64,000 nt of DNA from Fistulifera solaris (lineage: Eukaryota). Position numbers and translations under genes: made by a program. The DNA is taken from the NCBI GenBank assembly GCA_030295235.1, contig AP026173.1, positions 496,001-560,000 on the forward strand. The letters are read 5' to 3'. The notes beneath the pieces were generated by a model, which was not told the origin of the DNA, made no database searches, and saw only the letters and a list, made by a program, of their open reading frames with translations. Position 1 is the first letter of the stretch; the number at the start of each line of letters is the position of its first letter. Positions 4,717 to 45,267 of this stretch are shown one piece after another.

Positions 4717-5151
4717 ACTATTCTTCGTCTATTCTTCTTTGGTCAAACTAAGAAGTTGTTCTAGGCTCCAAAGTAAATAAAGACACCAGGTAATAATAGT
4801 GCCATAAGCAAGGGCAATGCCTTTGAATAAGGGAAAAAATGTGTATGTGCATGCTGCAAATGATAAAAAAAAAGCCGGTGCACGACGCGTTTATTGAAAG
4901 AGGAAATCATGCAAAAGGCGCGCGTGCTGGATACTGCATGCAGCTATACATAGAACGTAAATCTGTCGTAGCAATAATGGCTCAAAAAACGAGTCTCTAC
5001 AGTTTAGCTGATACAAAGCCATCAACCGAGCGTATCCTTTTCCTTCCGCGTGATAACGCATACACACCTGGCGAGAGCGTTGCAATCATTCCTTCGGTAG
5101 ATGATAAAAACAACATTGTAGATTGACATTCTACTACACGCAAACAAACAC

Positions 5152-5634
5152 ATGGACCCACCCGCACCTTTCCATCCGACGGCGACGCGTCGTTCGCGCG
5201 TGCAAGTCGGCGTCGGTGTCGTCGTCGTGCGTCCCGAAGACGGACGCGTGTATGCGGGGATTCGACGCAACAGTCACGGTGCCGGCTTGTTGGCCTTGCC
5301 GGGAGGGCACTTGGAATTGTACGAAGAGTGGGAGGAATGTGCCCGTCGTGAAGTCAAGGAAGAAATGAATCTGTCACTCGATAACGTGCAGTTTCTGCAT
5401 GTCACCAACGATCCCATGCCCGATGAAAACAAACATTATATAACCATCTTTATGATGGGGACTGCCACAGGAGAGCCTATCAATGCGGAACCACACAAAT
5501 GCGAAGGATGGTATGCGTTCGATTGGATTGATTTGATGCAACGAAATGACGATCTGTTTGGGCCGCTGCGAAATCTAATACGGGGCAATCCTTCCTCCTT
5601 GCAGCAATTTATACAACAAGTGCTTCAAAGATAG
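5152..5634 (+). CDS. Nudix hydrolase (NUDT15 / plant NUDT1-like)
   Basis: Nudix box GGHLELYEEWEECARREVKEEMNL; VGVGV, HYITIFM and EPHKCEGW motifs. Confidence 0.9.
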   Translation: MDPPAPFHPTATRRSRVQVGVGVVVVRPEDGRVYAGIRRNSHGAGLLALPGGHLELYEEWEECARREVKEEMNLSLDNVQFLHVTNDPMPDENKHYITIFMMGTATGEPINAEPHKCEGWYAFDWIDLMQRNDDLFGPLRNLIRGNPSSLQQFIQQVLQR

Positions 5635-5741
5635 ACAGAAAATACTTGGGGTGAAAAGAGATATCGACAGACTTTATTTTTTGCTTGCAGCTTTTTCCAG
5701 CAATCCGTTCGGGACGAATGATGTAGCCATTCTTTGATATG

Positions 5742-6683
5742 TTAGAGATGATGTTGAAGACCCAGCGAATAATACATCCCGATCGCCACAAGTACCGCAA
5801 CTCCACACATAAAGCCATTGTTAGTAGCAAAAAGTGGTTTTGTCTGTTGTTTACAAGTATCATCCGTCGATCGTGGACTCGCAACGAGAGCCGGTGGTGC
5901 ATCCCAAAAGTCACAGTTGTCCTTTTCTCGCAGCGCACAAGGTTTGCAGACAGTCTTTACTAGTACCTGTTTTGACACGTCGTGATCGTCGCCTCGACTC
6001 GTCACGGCTAATTTAGATGGTTCATCTTCGTGCGTAACAGAAGTACTAGTAGAACTACTCTTCTCTTCGATCTCACCTTCCGTGTCAAAACCGTCTGCTG
6101 AAATACAATCGAGAAAAGCACCGGGTCCGACGTAGGCCGCAACCTTTTTGGCGGTAGGAGTACATCGAGCATCGATCTGTTCTGCCACAATACTGTTCGT
6201 CGTCAAACACTTTTCGTGATTATAGGTCGCGTCCCTTAACATCGATTCGACGGATGTTAGTGGTAAAGCACCCGTTTGTACATACTCCTGCAAATTTGTT
6301 TCAATCTGATGGGCAGCATCACGGACCGGAATCTCCAACTCGGGTAATTCGACGCACGTGGAAGATTTTACCGTTGCCTCTGGACTTATGGAATGACGTG
6401 GATGCATCGCTTGACGCGATTCTCTGCGCCATTTCGTAATGGAAAGATAAATCGCATCGAGTGGCGATATTTCCCGATTCGCTGATACCTTCGTCGTTGT
6501 TGTAGTCGTCCTTGGACGCTTGTTCACAGGATCGTTTTGCAGTGCTACCTTGGCGACCTGTTCATTGAAATGACGATTGAGCTGTGTCGTCAAACCTCGT
6601 TGTCGAAGCGCTTCAAGCTCAGATTGTCGCTCTGTCGGTGTGAATGTTCGGGTGGAGGCAGGAGGTGATTCCTTTCGGTTCAT
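5742..6683 (-). CDS. Hypothetical protein with C-terminal transmembrane anchor
   Basis: 313-aa ATG ORF ending in the hydrophobic segment FMCGVAVLVAIGMYYSL; no recognised domain. Confidence 0.6.
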   Translation of the reverse strand: MNRKESPPASTRTFTPTERQSELEALRQRGLTTQLNRHFNEQVAKVALQNDPVNKRPRTTTTTTKVSANREISPLDAIYLSITKWRRESRQAMHPRHSISPEATVKSSTCVELPELEIPVRDAAHQIETNLQEYVQTGALPLTSVESMLRDATYNHEKCLTTNSIVAEQIDARCTPTAKKVAAYVGPGAFLDCISADGFDTEGEIEEKSSSTSTSVTHEDEPSKLAVTSRGDDHDVSKQVLVKTVCKPCALREKDNCDFWDAPPALVASPRSTDDTCKQQTKPLFATNNGFMCGVAVLVAIGMYYSLGLQHHL

Positions 6684-8772: not shown

Positions 8773-10058
8773 ATGCCTCCGAATCAACGCGACTTTCACG
8801 TGTTATCCAGTCATATCGAAGATGAAGATTCGTCGACCCGTCGCTACCGTTGCGCAGTCCTGGGTTGCGGCATGATGGGACAAGAACATGTATCGTACAT
8901 GGCGGGTTATGCGGACCGCGTGAGCATTGACTTTCTCTGTGATCCTCACACCGATTCACTGGATAAGTGCGTCAAAGTTCTTCGTGAATTCTCTTCTACA
9001 GTCAAGACCCCGATGTTGCTCCAAGACGAAGAAGAGCTCTGGCAGTTTGCTCATTCCATCGACTTGTTGGTGATTGCCACACCCAACTACCATCACGCTG
9101 GTCAACTGCTGCGCTGGGCGAATAACGATATGACCATTTTGGTGGAGAAGCCCGCGGCTATCTCGACTGCTCAGATCGAGGCCTTGAATGTTCACATGAA
9201 TGCCCGCGTTTGGGTGGCCATGGAATATCGATTCATGCCGGCCATTCGCCAACTTTTAGAGCTACGAGATATGGTCGGCGACATTCAGATGGTGACGATA
9301 CGCGAGAATCGCTTTCCTTTCTTACACAAGATCGGAGCTTGGAATCGCGATCCCCAAAAGACCGGAGACACGCTCGTGGAGAAATGGTAAGTAACTCTCT
9401 GTCAGAAAAGACCCGTGGATGTCTTTGTCAAGCAAATGCCTTACACACACTGGCACAATTCATATTTCGTAGCTGCCACTTCTTTGACTTGATGCGTCTC
9501 ATCACGGGACAAGAAGTTGATCTCGACAAAATACGTACCATGGCGCAACGTGGTATCAACTACGAACACGAAACTCTGACGACCGATCCAATCATCGATG
9601 CAGCTTATGTGATGATGAAGTTTCGAAAAGGATCGGAACAGCGCGTGGCCGCCATGGGATGCTTGGAGTTGTGCATGTACGCCGACGGTAGTCGCCACCA
9701 GGAAGAGATTGTCGTGACGGGTACGAAAGGACGATTGGAGGCGTATTTGCCAGAGAACAAGGTGTACGCGTTCGTTCGACCGAATCAGGATCAATGGAAA
9801 GACCGAAGCGTCCCACCACCGAGAAATGTCGTTCAACCAACTATTTTTGATTGCAACAAAATGATGGACGACCAAATCATTCCATCGCATGGTGGCTATC
9901 ATTATGGAAGCACGGCTGTCGAGTGGTACCGTCTACTCAATGCTATGGACTCTTACAAAGTGACAGGCGAGTGGGAGCCGGCCGTCTCATTGACAGATGG
10001 TATCAGAGCCGTGGAGATTGGCTTGACTGCAACCGCAGAGATCGTCAACGATCTCTGA
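8773..10058 (+). CDS. Gfo/Idh/MocA oxidoreductase (inositol 2-dehydrogenase-like); intron 9387-9472
   Basis: GCGMMG Rossmann motif, IATPN, VEKP. Splicing GTAAGT(9387)...TAG(9472) restores LVEKCCHFFDLM. Confidence 0.9.
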
Positions 10059-10145: not shown

Positions 10146-11517
10146 CTATGTTCGTACACTGGCGTAGTATTGGCCTAAAGGAGTCAGAGTTCCATCCAAA
10201 TTGAACAAGGCAGAGCTTGTCCCTTCTGGTCGATCGATTTCAAACGAGAACCATGCATATCCCATCACCCATGGCTGCTCCTCCAACCATGGAATTGCCT
10301 CTTTGCAAAGTTCAGAACCGTTTCCGCGGAGTGTCGGTTGTTTTGAACCGTAGTAGCGGACCAGTCAGCAGGAGCGAATTCGGTGATTAGAATGGGCTTT
10401 CCGTACTTCTCGTAGACTGCTTGCATTTTCGTCTTGAAACTATTCACGTTGGGTCCCCCGTACCAGTGAACGCCAATCCAGTCGACACGATAACACAATT
10501 CGACAACCCGACTCATAAATTCTTCCATCCATGCACCCAGGGGATCCACACAAGAAGGACTGACTAGGCTGAGACCCGTCTCTTCAAGTTGAGGCCAAAA
10601 ATCAATGGCTTGATCGACCGACATGTTCGCTTGATTCTGTTTATCTGGCTCATTGAAACCCAATAAGCGTTTTGCTCGCCTGCTTTGTATCTGTGGCAGA
10701 ACGTGATCTTGAATGAATTCAGGAACAAACCAAGGACCCCAAATCATGGGAGTGAACTCCATGTCCATCGGCTGAGCGTCGATCCGATATGCACCCCAGT
10801 TGTAATTCCAGTAACCGTTCAGCGCTTCTACTTTGGGAAGATTTTCAATCCATGACCCTTTTGTCCTTCCGGTCGCAATGTAAACGCTACTCCTTTTTTA
10901 CCCGGAAGGGGTGCTGGGGTTGGATGCTTAGCACAGCCGGTGGGGTCCAGAATCGGTGCGTACAGAGTGGGACTGAACAGTTGCATAGATCTTGAAGGTG
11001 CAGCGCTGGGTGCCGTAATGCGTAGATTGCTAGTACTCGCCGATGGGGAAATCGTAGGAGATGAAGTCAATTCGACCAAAGTCAGAGTAGGAGCAACATT
11101 GGATCCGCTCTCGTTTCGATTCAGTCCATACTTGAGGGCAAGCGCACAAAAAGTAAAGGAAAATACGATGACGAGAGAAAAGAGGAGAAACAAACTGGTT
11201 CTCCTTGGGTTAGAAAACAGTTCTTCTTTGAGCTCACGCCACAAAGTTGACTTTCTTTCGTCACTTCCACTTGACTCGATAGGGGTATCACCTTTCTCAC
11301 ATTCGCTATGCTGGAATGTAACAGTTTCTTCATCTTTTCTTGAGAGACTCATCTTTGCCAAATTAGGATTTACGCTTCCATACGTGCCCTGGTCCAAGAT
11401 CTCTGAAATGCAGCGCAGGTACCGCTCACGGTTTGGTGCTGGCATTGTCGATTGACCTTGGCGGTTCTCACCCTGATCACATTTGGTATCATTTCGTTTC
11501 ATCGTTCTGTCTTGCAT
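10146..11517 (-). CDS. Type II membrane GH128-like endo-beta-1,3-glucanase (frameshifted)
   Basis: Transmembrane segment and S/T/P stalk, then KKG, YWNYNW, FTPMIWG, LGFNEPD, LVSPS, GVHWY and ITEFA. Both catalytic Glu are present. Two frameshifts (about 10850 and 10300); stop TAG at 10148-10146. Confidence 0.82.
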
Positions 11518-37868: not shown

Positions 37869-38246
37869 AGTCGCGAAACGCTTGACTATTTCCACAGCTG
37901 CTATTTGAGGGATTACAGCGTCGCTATATTAGACAAGAAACTAGTCGTTTTATAAGGCTGAGCGTCGTCAACGCGCTCTTTTCGCATTGCGTTCATTTTT
38001 TTCGGTTTGTTTTTATCGCACACAACATCGCCTATCCTAGAGCACGGTTTTTATTTATCACAAAATGTGTCACACAAGTTATCATAAGGGTTATCAAAGT
38101 AATGGTCGTGACGGGTTTACCGTTTAGATGATTCTTCATTGTGACGTTGCAGCTTCAACCCGAACCCTAAAGTGTTAGTTTTGAAGCAAATATCGACAAC
38201 GACAAAAATGGCATCAAAACAGCAAAGTAAAGCTTCGTGTAATAAT

Positions 38247-38592
38247 TGTTGGAATCCACTTCCAGCTCGGAGCAACCCGCAGTATTAAACTTGTAGATCA
38301 ATTAAGCTCCGAGCTTGTTATAGTGAATAGGTAGATCAATAGTCTCTTTCTTGTCCTTTCTTAGTCTTAGTTGTTACTGTCTACCATTGGATTCATCCGA
38401 ATCAATGAGCTCATTGATTCGGACGAGCCTTTGGTCACTCCTCTTCCTGCCACTCGATCAGCCCACCTTACCGCTTTACTTGACTCGCCGATATCGCAGA
38501 CTGTACGAGGACTTAGATGCTCAACGCCCTCGGCTAGTTTCGCCAGACCGGGAGTCGTTCGAGTCACGACCGATACTGGATTTTCTCCAACA
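38247..38592 (-). repeat. 3' LTR (346 bp)
   Basis: TGTTGGA...TCCAACA termini. Differs from the other LTR by one substitution, one 3-nt indel and one 1-nt indel. Confidence 0.97.
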
Positions 38593-41500
38593 CGCCCTCT
38601 CGACTTCGGTGGGCGGAACCTCGCCGGAGGGTGTCCACATGTTTGTAACCTAAAATGACATCTCTGAATTTTCGAAACAGACTTCCGTTCAGTGGTTTAG
38701 TAAAGAAATCCGCCAACATCATCAACGATAGGGCAGTGTTTGATATCAATGCCCAAATCTCGAGTCCTATCCTTAATCCAGAAATATCGAATGTCAATGT
38801 GGCGCGATTTCTGTCCCGCCGACATTCTACCATTTGTCTCCATCCTAATTGCGCTTTCATTATCTTGTTCAAAAACAATTTCCTCCATCTTGTGTCCTTG
38901 AGCTTCCATAAACATCTTGGTCCACATTGTGTGTGGTAGGTAATCGCTGGCTCCAACTAACTCAGCCTCCGTCGAACTTTTCAGATATTCAACTTTTGTT
39001 TCGACGACTTGCACATCAGACCTCCATTGCCCAACGAAGTGACTCCTCCCGTATGACTTTTCATGTCAGGATGTACAGCGAAAGCGGCATCAACCCACGA
39101 GTGAAATCTGTTCAAACTGTCAGCTCCAAGTGTATACGTCAAATCAATGCTTCCTTTGATGTACTCCAACACTCGCTTGAGTTTCGCTTGATCCTGCTTC
39201 GTACTTTTTGTCACTCTGGTACATAGGAATGATACCGGCAATAAAATATCCATTCGTCCACGTGTCGCCACATATAGCAATTTCGCCACGACACTACGAA
39301 AAACTTCCGACTCATCTCCAAGCAAGGGTTCCGATTCCTCGTCAATATCAAAAAGATTCGATCTCGCTGGCGTAGTAGCCTCTCGGGTAATATTCAGTCC
39401 CGACTCCTCAATACTCTCTTGTAGATAATCTTTCATCTGGATCTCCACGGTTTGGTTCGAATTCAACGAAATATCCATCCCGAGGAACTTGTGCTTTTTT
39501 CCGCGCGTAATCGACATCTTTCCGAACTTTGCTTCGATATCCTTGATCACTTGTGTTACAACTTTGGGGTCTACGTGGGAAACTTTCATATCATCCACGT
39601 ACCACGCGATGGTGCATTGCTTTCCATTTATTTTCTTGTTCGCGATACAACTGTCATACGGATTCAATTCAAAACCCATTTCGACCAGTGACCCAGCGAA
39701 CATCTCATACCACAAAAGCGCACTGCAAACGCATCCGTACAGAGCTTTCAGCAGTTGTACGCATAACACTCGCTTGCCTCCTTCGATGGCAACAAATTCT
39801 TCGTATTTTGGGTTCATCTTACACATGATATTGACGGACTCTCCGGTGAACTTCAGTAGCGTAAAATCCGCCATATTAGCCTTCAAATATGCTCCGACGA
39901 CATCCGCGAATAGCCACGTCTCTTCCTTCATGCGCATCGACGATTAAAGATAACAAAAGGGCATCGGTCGGAAACGGTCGGAGAAGCTGTTTGCGATTTG
40001 TCGGTAAAGGTCTTTTTGCACGCTTCCATCGGCCACCGTCCGTCCTTTGATCCGTCCATCTCGTTTCTTCGTGACTAAATTGATTGCGCGAGCTCGTTTT
40101 TGTTCCGGCCGTCAAATCTTTTGCGTGCATCGCCATGAACACTCCCAAATCTTCCAATTGCGCAAATTCATTCATTAAAGCTTGAACTGCGTCTTCTCCG
40201 TAAAGTTTGATTGCTGCTTTAGCGGTCAATTGCGCGAAGACTCGCTCAAAAATAATGTTTCGGAGTTCTTCGACGTTTTCTCTTTCCTTTCGGGCTCACC
40301 ATCATTTTTGCTTTTCTCGTCGGGCGACATGCATGGCCGCCTGAAATAAAACCGTTTGAAACAATACGGTCGGTGTCTCGTAAGCTTTATTGATGTGAGG
40401 CTCATCCATGGCCTCGATCAATCTTGCAGGAGGCCTAATAGAGGCCCGGTTTCTCAAATGGTACGTCGCTCCTTGCTCGTTGTCAATTGCCGTCACTCTA
40501 GGGTCAGCGTCCTCATTTGTATCATCTTCCTCCTTGCGCTTCATCAAATATCTCATCATCTTCCGCTCCTTGCTCTTCCTCAAGTGCAGGTTCATTAATA
40601 TCGCCCGCTCCTTGCTCTTCCTCGAGGATTGGCGCTTGTTGTTCGTTGTCATCGTTGTCAAAGTTGTCGCCGCCCTCGTGGTCGTTATCGCCGTCGTCGG
40701 CATTTTCGATGCCGTTTTCATCGTCATCATTTGGGAAAATTTCATTGTCGTTTTCATTATCGGGGAAATCATGGTATGGGATGTGGGGGTCGAGGGTTGT
40801 GGGGGTCTTCTTCCGTGGGTTCGGTGTCGCCGATTTCGAGGCTGGGGTCTTCCGCTCCTTGATCTGTCTCCAGATCGGAGACGAGATCACCAAAGTCAGC
40901 ATCGGGGTCGACGGTACCGCCCCATTCAACAATCAACCCGGTTTTTTGAATAAGTGGCTGCTTGTCTTGCGTCGCAAGCAGTTCAACTTGATTGACGACT
41001 GCTTCTGTGATGCGACAGACAGTCCACTGGTGTCGAACAATCAACTCTCCAGAGGACAATGACATAAAGTAATACGCGCCTCCGGCGTTTCCAGTAAGAT
41101 TGAGTGCTATGGCGCCGTGTGTCCGAGAGCGTGGTGTATTGGAGGGTTTCGGTGCGTCGTATACTTGGGCATAGGTTCCGAACTCGAGTTTCATCTTGTT
41201 GTAGTCAGGTGGTGGGCTTCCAGTCATAATAGTTTCCGGCGAGATATCTTTAGAAACGCCGTGATTTCCATGGGAAAATGTTCAAACAATTCACAACGTG
41301 CATCATCAGGTGTCGGATGAAGATAATGGGAAGTTTCTTGTAAGGAAGCCCATGGATGGTGGTTCGGGCTCGCTCCTTAATTGTTCTGTTGGATCGTTCA
41401 ATTTCGGGAACATGCGTGTTGGGTGCAACAATATCGAGTACAACTGGTCCCAAGTCGTCCCGTAAGCATGCAAACTCGTTATCACCATGGATTGCAGTGA

Positions 41501-43572
41501 CTGGGAGACCACGGCTGCGGTAGATATCCAGCAGTCGACGGATTTCCTTCAGCATCACTGGTTTTGATCGATCAGGGACCGGCGCAATGGTGCGCCAGCC
41601 AATATTGCGGGAGATTGTCACTAGGAACGGGATTTTGTTGACAAAAACGAAATCAACCGCTAACGTCACGTGATCGTGGTGCAGCAAGATTGACCTTGGC
41701 ACAGCAAGCCGGACTTGATCTGGTACGTGTGCTGGAGGGGGTCCTGCTGTCGTGGTTCCTTTCAGTTTTGGAACATCGGGTCCATAGATGGTAACAGCTC
41801 GTCGAGCATCATCCACGGTCAAAGGGGAGTTGTGAATTCTGTTGTTCCTCAAATAATCTTCAAATGCCGCTTGGCCGGGCCGATTAAGAATCTTGTACAG
41901 TCGTTGAGCCTCATCTGCAAGCTCCACTTGTCTTCTGGTAAACAGTTTCTTTGCCTCTTCTACGGTAAGTACAAAGGAATAGGCGCTAACAGACTGATTA
42001 TTGTTAGGTTTAAAAACGCATTACAAACCACAGTCATGTTCTTCAAATCTCATCTGGGAACCGTCAAGTCGGTGCACAATAAGTGCTGGTTCCACAGATG
42101 TGTCCATTGTGATTCGGCAAACCTTTCTCACATCTTTCACTGACAGGATATTAGCGATTGAATCTTGATTGTACCACACAGGTCCTAGATTCGGAAAATC
42201 ACCTATCAAATGCGAGTCTTGGTGTCCGCCGTTCGTGATAGCCCGCATCACGTCACCACTGTCGCGAATGTTGCTCAAATAGTCCTTGGTATTGAAAACT
42301 GACACGGACGACTGTGTATCTAGAAGGATCCACGACTTGTCTATGTGTCCAGCCGCCTGCTGTGTCATCACGAAGCCCATCGAGAGCAAAGTAGTTTCTT
42401 TCTTGTTAGGCTCATTGCAATTTCCTGAATAGTGCCCATAGTTGTTGCAATTGTAGCAAAGAATGTCTTGATATGTTCTTCCATCATTTCCTGCGATTAC
42501 ACACACGTCGCCTTGAACGAAAGTGTGGTTAGTAGCTGGAGTAGAAGCCTTAGCCTGTTCAGTCTTGTTTCCTCCTTGATTTTGAGTCCCGCGCGGGTGC
42601 TGATGTGACTCGTTTCGCGGAATCTCGCATAAATTCACAAGCGCAAAAGCGGACGCCAGGTCTTGCGGGTAGTTATCGTTTCCTTTCGCGAAATCATTCT
42701 TCAATTCGCCCTAAAAGTCGCCCGTATCGCGTCCGATCTAGACCCTTCAGATACGCCCGTCGCAAGAGCGCATTCCTGCGGACGTTTTTCGTGCCTCCCT
42801 CGTCTCCCGACGGATGATGGGACGTTCTTCCAATCTCCCATCACGCTCCCTCCGCAGTGTTTCACGACCTCGGCCAGCGCTTTCAATCTTTTCATGTACT
42901 CTTCGGGTGTTTCTCTTGTTCCTTGTTCGCGAAGTGTAAAAAGCAACTTTTGCTTCATGTTCCGACATCATGGGGTACGTGCGGTCATCGAAATTCATGA
43001 TGATGGCCTTGATTTGCGTAAGTAGCCATACGCAGTCGTGTTCGTCGTGTTTCTCTTCAAATTCGGCCAGCGTCTTGATTTTGCTTTGCAGTGCCGCGCT
43101 TGTTTGACCCCATATGATAGCATGGAGCGCAACATTGTTTGTTTCCAGTTTCATTTCTCTTTTTGCTAGCACTCTGTCAGTTTTGCTGTTCGAACCGCTT
43201 TCTTGTCTTCCGAGGCCTTTTCCGGTAGCGGCGCTGGGGTATTTCACTTCGGGCTTCTTCATTGGGTCTTGAAAGACGGACGCCAATTCCATGTAAGAGT
43301 CCTTCACTGTTCCTGTTTGTGCAACCTCCTTTAGCTTGTCTTTTGTCTTGGTGAACTGAGTCGGGTCATTAGCTTCCTCCGGTAGCTCAAAAACGTGACC
43401 GTCCATTTCTTTAAATGACCCGCGGAACTTTTTCATCACCCCTTGGTTGTTTCCGCGCCCTGCTGCACCATTCCCTCTACCGCCTCTACTTCCGCGGTTC
43501 TTATTGCCTCCCCCTTCCAGCCGGTGCCGGTGCTGGAGACGGACTTGCTCCTTCAGGCATTGGAGAGGACAT
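38564..43572 (-). CDS. Gag-Pol polyprotein, fragmented by frameshifts and one in-frame TAA
   Basis: RGG-rich Gag start; zinc knuckle CYNCNNYGHYSGNC; protease ILLDTQSS; integrase LAVD / GDNEF / PEIERSNR; acidic linker; RT ADVVGAYL, WYVDD; RNase H WVDAAF, STEAE, EQDN, HIDIRYF, LADFFTK. The last codons run into the 3' LTR. Confidence 0.93.
38593..38607 (-). other. Polypurine tract
   Basis: Minus strand reads GAAGTCGAGAGGGCG immediately before the 3' LTR. Confidence 0.65.
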
Positions 43573-43597
43573 TGTCTATCAACCGATCAAGAGTCTT

Positions 43598-43611
43598 TTG
43601 ATTCGGATGAA
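43598..43611 (-). other. Atypical primer-binding-site position, self-complementary to the LTR
   Basis: Minus strand TTCATCCGAATCAA abuts the 5' LTR, has no TGG start, and is the exact complement of LTR segment 43767-43754. Confidence 0.75.
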
Positions 43612-43953
43612 TGTTGGAATCCACTTCCAGCTCGGAGCAACCCGCAGTATTAAACTTGTAGATCAATTAAGCTCCGAGCTTGTTATAGTGAATAGGTAGA
43701 TCAATAGTCTCTTTCTTGTCCTTTCTTAGTCTTAGTTGTTACTGTCTACTGGATTCATCCGAATCAATGAGCTCATTGATTCGGACGAGCCTTGGTCACT
43801 CCTCTTCCTGCCACTCGATCAGCCCACCTTACCGCTTTACTTGACTCGCCGATATCGCAGACTGTACGAGGACTTAGATGCTCAACGCCCTCGGCTAGTT
43901 TCGCCAGACCGGGAGTCGTTCGAGTCACGACCGATACTTGATTTTCTCCAACA
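43612..43953 (-). repeat. 5' LTR (342 bp)
   Basis: Direct repeat of 38247-38592 lying upstream of the gag ATG (43572). Confidence 0.97.
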
Positions 43954-43976
43954 ATAATGACATGTTCCTATAGTGT

Positions 43977-45267
43977 ATGAATCAACGGATGACATCTATG
44001 CTGAGAAATATCGTCAATGATGCAAAGAGCGGTAGCGAGGCGGCTCGCAAGATTGCCCGGACGACTACATCGCGAGCCATTCAGGCCATCACTCTTTTTC
44101 TTGTCGTAGTCGGAACAATTACTCTAGCCGGCGACTTCTATTTCCTTACCAACCTCCGAAAATCTCGCAAAAATCATCGTTCGCAAAAATTAGTCTCTAC
44201 TGCAAGAACACACAGCAGTGCAACTCTTCACGATCGAAGTGTGGTGGCCAATCTGTTACGAGACGCCGGTGCCACGGTGAAGGATGAATCCAAATTACCG
44301 ACACTGGGGCAAATCGCCGACTTGTATGGACCAAGACCCGTGATATTAGGCCTCGAGCATTGTGAGCGGTTTCGCACTTCGGTTCCGGCTTCCGGTAAGT
44401 AAGCTAGGCGACCATCGAAACCGCGTACAACACTCATAGGCGTCTCTCCCTCTCTCAAGAACGCATGCTGGGTGCCGCCGGAATGTTTTCGACGGGGACG
44501 AACCTAGTGACGCACCTATTGAAGAAGAACTGTTATATTCCCGAGCGCGCCGAAAAGTATGGTCTCGAGACGGCGACGAAAGAACAATTAGGCATGCGAT
44601 GGCAGGTACCTTGGGGAAAACACACACCGGCGGACTACAAAATTAAGCATGCCACCGAGAAGGCACAACAGATCAATAAAGACTTAATTTTGCCATGCGT
44701 GACAATCAGATCGCCGTGGCGATGGATGCAGAGCATGTGCAAGAATCCCTACACAGCTCGTTGGCCGCATGCAAACATCTGTCCTCATTTGGTCGTCAAC
44801 GCATCGGAATCCAGTCAGCAATGGAATCCAGTATCGGTCAAATACGGAGCAGGAACGGAAAATTACACATCGCTGGTTCATCTGTGGATCGAATGGTATG
44901 GCCAGTATGCACGATTAGTGCTGAATGACGATTTTGTAGAAAACCAGTCATATCCGGTCCTGATCATACGCATGGAAGATCTCATCTTTTATACACAAGA
45001 AACAGTGACGCAGATCTGCCAATGTGCAGGAGGAGTCATCTATGCTGACAAACCGTTTGAATATGTAGTTGAATCGGCCAAAAAGATTCACCAGGGCACG
45101 ACACCAGTATTGGATTAACGGAAGCGTGGATTAAATACAGTAAACCGCTTCAACCGCATGCCGGTTTTGTGCCGGAAGACTATCTTGCGGGCATTGACGC
45201 TTTAAATCATGATGATCTGTTCAAGTTAGTGGAACTCTTACATTATCATCATCCTCCATCCGATTAG
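43977..45267 (+). CDS. Type II membrane sulfotransferase-like protein (paralog B); intron 44395-44459; frameshift near 45080
   Basis: TM; AGMFSTGTN, WQVPWGKH, IRSPWRWMQS and IIRMEDL, collinear with 12061-13744. Confidence 0.78.

Follow-up and report, generated by a model that had tools for sequence, protein, structure and literature searches.

The complete Ty1/copia LTR retrotransposon described here, found in a 64,000-nt stretch of Fistulifera solaris DNA (the window), belongs to a large family of diatom elements that probably start their minus-strand DNA with the 5' end of their own RNA, in the manner of Tf1. The initial annotation had read this copia element as self-primed, and comparison with its relatives, at the level of sequence, supports that reading: the same design recurs in 48 of the 80 loci analysed, which are the best 80 of at least 539. 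The argument is built on the complementarity between the primer binding site (PBS) and a segment of the LTR, on the fixed position of this complementarity at the LTR end, on its conservation while the sequence itself changes, and on the TCA context of the LTR segment.

The element occupies positions 38247-43953 of the window, and all of its parts given below lie on the minus strand. It is flanked by the target-site duplication ATTAT, at 43954-43958 on the 5' side and 38242-38246 on the 3' side, as read from the sequence and the alignment of the LTR regions. The 5' LTR (342 nt, 43612-43953), delimited by aligning both LTR regions and by a repeat search, and the 3' LTR (346 nt, 38247-38592), delimited by the same alignment, both read TGTTGG...CCAACA at their ends and are the same except for one substitution and two indels, of 1 nt and 3 nt. 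The TG..CA termini of the two LTRs, together with the 5-bp target-site duplication, are a Ty1/copia trait. The gag-protease-integrase-RT-RNase H coding region spans 38697-43572, with the gag ATG 25 nt after the end of the PBS, and a purine-rich stretch immediately before the 3' LTR (38593-38607) is the putative polypurine tract.

The sequence TTCATCCGAATCAA (43611-43598) follows immediately after the 5' LTR. It does not begin with TGG, in agreement with what had been noted at the outset, and its exact reverse complement is the LTR segment 43767-43754, 14 nt in length. The last base of the LTR, A43612, pairs in addition with T43753, and the match therefore covers 15 nt (43612-43598 against 43767-43753); it ends sharply at both sides and has no extension. 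The predicted PBS is accordingly made of the terminal LTR base A and the next 14 nt (43598-43612), and the predicted self-primer, which would be the start of R and the first 15 nt of the element RNA, is the segment 43753-43767. A search of the window with the 14-mer, allowing up to two mismatches, returned six matches where 1.11 were expected, and none of 100 shuffles reached six. The six are the PBS, one arm in each LTR, one diverged sense copy in each LTR, and an unrelated site at 8774. The 15-nt PBS complement inside the element's own LTR, including the terminal LTR base, had been the central observation of the initial annotation, and it was re-derived here as an exact match. The 3' LTR also carries both the primer segment (38405-38391) and the diverged, PBS-like copy (38427-38414). 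Between primer and PBS, in R-U5, there is a stem-loop with exact arms of 10 nt (43629-43680).

The coding region places the element in its class. Its RT piece matches Pfam RVT_2, the copia-type RT, with an E-value of 6.2e-14 and 52.6 bits against a cut-off of 31.6, and the ORF with the YVDD RT (39943-38981) is preceded by an integrase-like ORF with D,D,E (42020-41250), the gene order of Ty1/copia. Pfam gave no name to the integrase piece. The gag-protease part has a CCHC knuckle, which reached 18.6 bits for zf-CCHC, under the cut-off of 20.8. The best protein matches are polyproteins of 1600-1720 aa; measured against the best of them, the window copy shows at least four frame changes, spread over at least five frames, and an in-frame stop at 42021-42023. 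As assembled, the copy is non-autonomous and cannot encode its own proteins, despite its near-identical LTRs; the combination of broken frames with such LTRs reflects either a young non-autonomous copy or indel errors in the assembly. The named matches to the RT piece are to two diatoms, Fistulifera solaris (97% and 82% identity) and Fragilaria crotonensis, and hundreds of metagenome proteins match it as well; a diatom host is consistent with the CoDi copia lineages of Maumus et al. (2009). In the closest named polyprotein model (Fistulifera solaris, P0001), residues 1-153 are without counterpart in the window element, and these extra ~150 N-terminal residues probably mean that the gene model has been joined to a host gene next to it. 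The element itself is intergenic. An ORF for SOR/SNZ (PdxS, vitamin B6 synthesis; 36420-35821, minus strand; Pfam E 2e-100) lies about 1.8 kb from its 3' end, and the Pfam search matched nothing else in the flanks.

The relatives were collected by scanning metagenomes with an alignment of 42 full-length polyproteins, which confirmed at least 539 of them; neither the single RT piece nor the alignment of 42 proteins found any in the viral contig collection. The best 80 loci and the window element were then scanned for inverted repeats with exact arms of 12 nt or more, 60-300 nt apart. In 49 of the 81 sequences the scan found 55 repeats in all; 20 locally shuffled sets gave 1-12 each (mean 4.6). 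Forty-five of the 55 repeats, from 44 loci and the window, show one shared anatomy: the upstream arm stands directly between CA (in most cases TCA) on its 5' side and CC on its 3' side; the downstream arm has the LTR-terminal A as its first base, after CAAC or TAAC; and the two arms are spaced 107-171 nt from start to start. Wherever both LTRs are present on a contig, the downstream arm begins at the last LTR base, as in L064, with LTRs at 5595-5899 and 10346-10660 and a downstream arm whose first base is 5899. Three more loci (L035, L051 and L078) have lost the 5' LTR at the contig start, and their PBS matches the arm of the 3' LTR exactly over 15 nt; in L034 the match between PBS and arm has one or two mismatches. 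Among the 48 loci with this design, 47 are exact at 13-17 nt, mostly at 15. The other ten repeats sit elsewhere and are unrelated to PBS pairing. One 12-nt inverted repeat inside gag, with arms 128 nt apart and likewise unrelated to the PBS, is the same in L050 (3548-3687) and L071 (444-583), and next to the copia relative in L054 (2269-2601) lies a large, nested palindrome whose exact arms measure 40 and 61 nt.

The loci in which no match was found deserve a closer account. Among the 80 loci, none was seen that holds both parts without a match. Of the 32 remaining loci, 21 are without the gag N-terminus by tblastn. L056, L069 and L071 begin inside gag, and so, it appears, does L009, whose upstream sequence shows no LTR end; L045 has a partial gag match only, from query residue 216. 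In L016 the gag motif is found at position 113, with an open frame already from position 2, and L001 has only 44 nt before the gag start. L006, L010 and L025 do show an LTR end and a PBS-like sequence, with less than 110 nt of LTR and the arm off the contig, and L050 has no LTR end upstream. L001 is among the closest relatives as listed by best-segment identity (61%; L004 has 62%). It opens with a run of 15 A at the expected place of the PBS, and its 3' LTR (5095-5404) keeps the TCA-arm-CC context with a different arm sequence. Many relatives carry an extra small ORF between PBS and gag (at about 96-390 in L006 and about 143-480 in L010), with a coiled-coil-like N-terminus followed by a GD(K/R)VRI...G-V stretch; the PBS-to-gag distances of 500-660 nt in relatives are due to this ORF, which the window element is without.

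The arms differ from element to element. Among 48 elements (47 loci and the window, with L034 left out), there are 42 distinct arm sequences. The check suggested in the initial annotation, whether PBS and LTR segment change together in relatives and are still complementary, gives a clearly positive answer. The arms are 15 nt long in 37 elements, 14 nt in five and 16 nt in four, with one arm of 13 and one of 17 nt; their mean G+C is 18%, and the downstream arm begins with A in 42 of the 48. Element pairs with R-U5 interiors 71-93% identical show 1-8 primer differences, each of them compensated in the PBS.

The same is seen in the covariation analysis, which used 34 of the 45 sequences. L014, a duplicate of L013 in sequence, was left out, and so were the ten for which MAFFT found no placement (L026, L033, L037, L048, L059, L062, L067, L068, L073 and L076). 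RNAalifold predicted a 15-pair long-range helix from this alignment and nothing else. Twelve of the 15 helix pairs are changed on both sides in some sequences; 124 cells are of this kind, where shuffles have 28.5. The covariation score came to 0.688, which none of 500 shuffles reached; it was 0.150 when shuffled, and sliding the partners by 1-3 columns lowered it to at most 0.171. It is worth bearing in mind that the alignment rows were picked for an exact repeat and are 98.2% paired by construction; the independent, unbiased evidence is therefore the count of loci. G-U pairs make up one of 508 cells. Selection on RNA folding would tolerate G-U; that such pairs are almost missing speaks more for copying from a template than for this kind of selection alone. 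In the relatives of shared anatomy, no second PBS-like sequence that is conserved was found after the downstream arm. The R-U5 interior was also searched for a Tf1-like U5 stem-loop, and RNAalifold on three sub-alignments gave no pairs there, only sequence motifs. Common to many relatives are CCCATCGTAAGAA..AGTTTAATTGACT just after the primer (alignment columns about 16-45) and GATTAAAGGTC some 45 nt before the LTR end (alignment columns about 117-127); both are weakly present in the window copy.

The context of the upstream arm suggests where the RNA begins. The arm is preceded by CA in 43 of the 48 elements. In 37 of the 48 it forms part of the motif TCAHW, the H being its own first base; the background rate of this motif is 0.0076 per nt. 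The window element has its initiator-like TCA, identified as a motif match, at 43768-43770, immediately 5' of the primer segment. Kadono et al. (2015; PMC4686930) proposed TCAH(+1)W as an initiator-like motif of Phaeodactylum, with +1 right after TCA. This diatom motif puts the predicted +1 at the first base of the arm, 43767. The oomycete initiator YCAYTYY, at which the start is usually the adenine according to Roy et al. (2013; PMC3599244), would put it at 43768, one base before the arm; base 43768 is not matched in the PBS. With +1 at 43767 or 43768, the complementarity would end at the predicted RNA start, and this is what defines self-priming of the Tf1 type. The start range of 43772-43767 predicted earlier agrees with the position of the TCA before the arm. 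No transcript-derived contigs were recognised among the relatives; L001 alone has a homopolymer end, which is uninformative.

Taken together, these features suggest a priming cycle with the following proposed steps. Transcription would start within the LTR, at 43767 or 43768 in the initiator-like TCA|T. Nucleotides 1-15 of the RNA would fold back over ~140 nt of R-U5 and pair with 43612-43598, and cleavage would follow nt 15, at the junction of the conserved AAU with CC. The 15-mer would then be extended from its 3' end through U5 and R to give ~140 nt of DNA on a 15-nt RNA primer, and this DNA would be transferred to the 3' R. Finally, plus-strand strong-stop DNA would copy the primer, and the PBS would be rewritten from the element's own 5' end. 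The arms would stay perfectly complementary because the PBS of each new copy would be rewritten from the primer in this way; under the standard model of plus-strand strong-stop synthesis, such re-synthesis in each cycle would be expected to leave strict Watson-Crick pairing. The pairing of the last U of the primer with the final A of the LTR is conserved, and the A of the terminal CA would thus be templated by the primer. In Tf1 the self primer is reportedly not removed, to go by the title of a 2006 paper of Atwood-Moore et al., which fits a primer-templated A.

The primer segment has a second partner on the other side. The sequence 43789-43754 is a near-perfect palindrome centred on GAGCTC, in which the primer segment is the 3' arm. 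The 5' arm opposite is a PBS-like copy at the 3' end of U3 (43776-43789), the same as the PBS at 12 of 14 positions, and in the window element the arms pair through one G-U. When the arm and the 35 nt upstream of it were folded for 47 elements and compared with controls in which the upstream part was shuffled, the U3 hairpin was more stable than 95% of controls in 32 of the 47, most clearly in L049, L052 and L043. The initial annotation was right about the LTR segment as the complement of the PBS, and the fold adds the role it had left out, that of the 3' arm of a hairpin in U3. Because the hairpin needs U3, it is limited to the 3' end of the RNA or to read-through RNA; in any transcript begun upstream of 43789, this local fold would win over the long-range pairing. 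Selection is the more likely cause of the hairpin than copying, as we infer from its tolerance of G-U and mismatches, unlike the pairing of primer and PBS.

The hairpin raises the question of how a self-priming element avoids interference from a second copy of its primer. One answer could be that it masks the 3' primer copy, so that only the capped 5' end primes; it could also mark the 3' LTR for formation of the RNA 3' end. As DNA, the palindrome across U3 and R may act as a divergent initiator, from which an antisense RNA with a primer-like beginning would arise. The opposite strand of 43754-43789 reads GCTCA and then a primer-like sequence, and an antisense start there would give an RNA that begins with a near-copy of the primer. 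A broader proposal, namely that self-priming is ancestral and general in the abundant marine and freshwater diatom copia clade and comes with a covarying U3 PBS-like hairpin across the start, is tentative, and we would sooner doubt it than adopt it.

Other explanations of the long-range pairing have to be weighed against priming by the RNA 5' end. It could be a structural RNA element, serving circularisation, packaging, dimerisation or translation control, while another RNA primes elsewhere. Long-range 5' structures are common in retroelements, retroviruses have U5-leader pairings, and the region folds well, with a z-score of -4.5 for 43800-43560. We nevertheless consider such a purely structural role unlikely. 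A primer has to end at the last LTR base if it is to define U5, and this is exactly where the downstream arm lies in all elements; no other conserved PBS-like sequence follows it. The single G-U among 508 cells and the sharp, fixed ends of the arms also fit copying of a primer better. A role for the host is less probable still. Most Ty1/copia elements are primed by a tRNA or a half-tRNA, as stated in PMC6317226, and the PBS might bind a host tRNA, a tRNA half or another small host RNA, with the LTR copy being incidental. An exact 15-nt complement in the element's own LTR is unexpected under tRNA priming, however, and the relatives have 42 different A/T-rich site sequences, each complementary to the LTR of its own element. 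Since the arms are A/T-rich (18% G+C) and differ between elements, one tRNA common to all of them could not do the work. The site also has no TGG; Rfam found nothing significant over 38100-44100, its best matches being two hairpin-like ones in each LTR, with E-values of 0.6-0.7 and scores far under the gathering cut-offs; and no tRNA was found in the 64,000-nt window. Such a host primer is therefore highly improbable.

That the repeat arose by chance, or from the assembly or low complexity, is barely conceivable. The arms of the relatives are A/T-rich, at the 18% G+C just mentioned, and many of the metagenome contigs are circularly permuted assemblies with terminal overlaps of 127 nt, both of which speak for this reading. 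Against this, shuffles that keep the local composition gave 1-12 repeats per set where 55 were observed, the repeats occur at one fixed place relative to the LTR end and the TCA, and the window copy is embedded in a long piece of genomic sequence and bordered by target-site duplications. Chance or artefact as the source of the PBS-LTR repeat is excluded by the window shuffles, the locus scan and the covariation. Priming by the element's own RNA 5' end is the reading that we carry into the comparison with other retroelements.

If it is correct, self-priming, which had been predicted for the plant lineage TAR, would extend to the copia clade that dominates the matches from diatom-rich metagenomes, with at least 539 relatives. 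To our knowledge, self-primed reverse transcription is proven only for Tf1. Annotation pipelines that demand a tRNA-type PBS would be expected to discard such elements and to under-count diatom copia; the LTRdigest filter described for Cyclotella cryptica (PMC7466962) is one example. The individual 15-nt Watson-Crick pair of primer and PBS in each element would provide a natural read-out of primer length and of the RNA 5' end, and it would also offer a simple handle to mark or disable single families in diatom strains. In the open-access literature searched we found no report of self-priming copia elements in diatoms. None of the papers listed there on LTRs of diatom copia elements describes a type of PBS, and the main text of the CoDi paper of Maumus et al. 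(2009) mentions no primer binding site, tRNA or priming.

There are several known systems with which the diatom element can be compared. Drosophila copia, Ty5, Osser and Bianca, which use half-tRNA priming, have a PBS without TGG, as the diatom element does. The PBS of a half-tRNA element is conserved within its lineage because it matches one tRNA, as described in PMC6317226, whereas the diatom PBS varies with each element and matches that element's own LTR. The fungal GalEa elements come closer in one respect. They are copia elements that have, instead of a PBS, a Conserved Hairpin Site (Donnart et al., 2017; PMC5445492), made up of a local 9-bp palindrome and a nearby hairpin, and the authors found no LTR complement. 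The diatom element resembles GalEa in being a copia element without a tRNA-type PBS and in having, where a PBS would lie, a conserved structure of which the A that ends the LTR is a part. It differs in that its site is not palindromic and has an exact complement in the LTR, and it is not an element of the GalEa design.

A much nearer likeness is found among plant Ty1/copia elements. For the lineage TAR, self-priming was predicted by Neumann et al. (2019; PMC6317226), who cite Capy (2005) for Houba and Osr-1 and who looked for a 5'-LTR segment of at least 10 bp complementary to the region 0-5 bp after the LTR. The diatom element, like TAR as described there, is a copia element with a complement in its 5' LTR, and its 15 bp exceed the 10 bp that Neumann et al. 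required. The evidence is computational in both; the host of TAR is a green plant and the present host is a diatom. The proposal of self-priming in Ty1/copia made in the initial annotation is strengthened by our results, and it is less novel than it had seemed there, the same having already been predicted for TAR in PMC6317226.

The comparison with Tf1 of Schizosaccharomyces pombe is the most instructive one. Neither element has a PBS of the tRNA type, and in both the primer, which is predicted in the diatom element, lies ~100-150 nt upstream in the same RNA. The segment complementary to the PBS by which the self-primed class is recognised is present here as an exact 15-nt match in the window, and the design recurs in 48 of the 80 relatives. 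For Tf1, cleavage by RNase H and the requirement for a U5 stem-loop are established, and its primer is 11 nt long, as against the 15 nt predicted for the diatom element. The pairing in the diatom element includes the last LTR base, which sets it apart from Tf1, and the U3 PBS-like copy that forms a hairpin with the primer is a part of the diatom element not described for Tf1-type elements. Tf1 and the sushi group, for which the self-priming principle is cited in PMC5445492 and PMC6317226, are Ty3/gypsy elements, whereas the diatom element is Ty1/copia by its RVT_2 RT and by its integrase before the RT. The marks of the Tf1/sushi group are RT-RNase H before integrase together with a chromodomain, and the diatom element has the opposite order. 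The diatom element is therefore proposed to work like Tf1 while standing outside the Tf1/sushi group, and the sequence comparison supports placing the diatom copia elements among the self-primed LTR retrotransposons, as members from a new host group that would follow a principle known from Tf1 and predicted for TAR.
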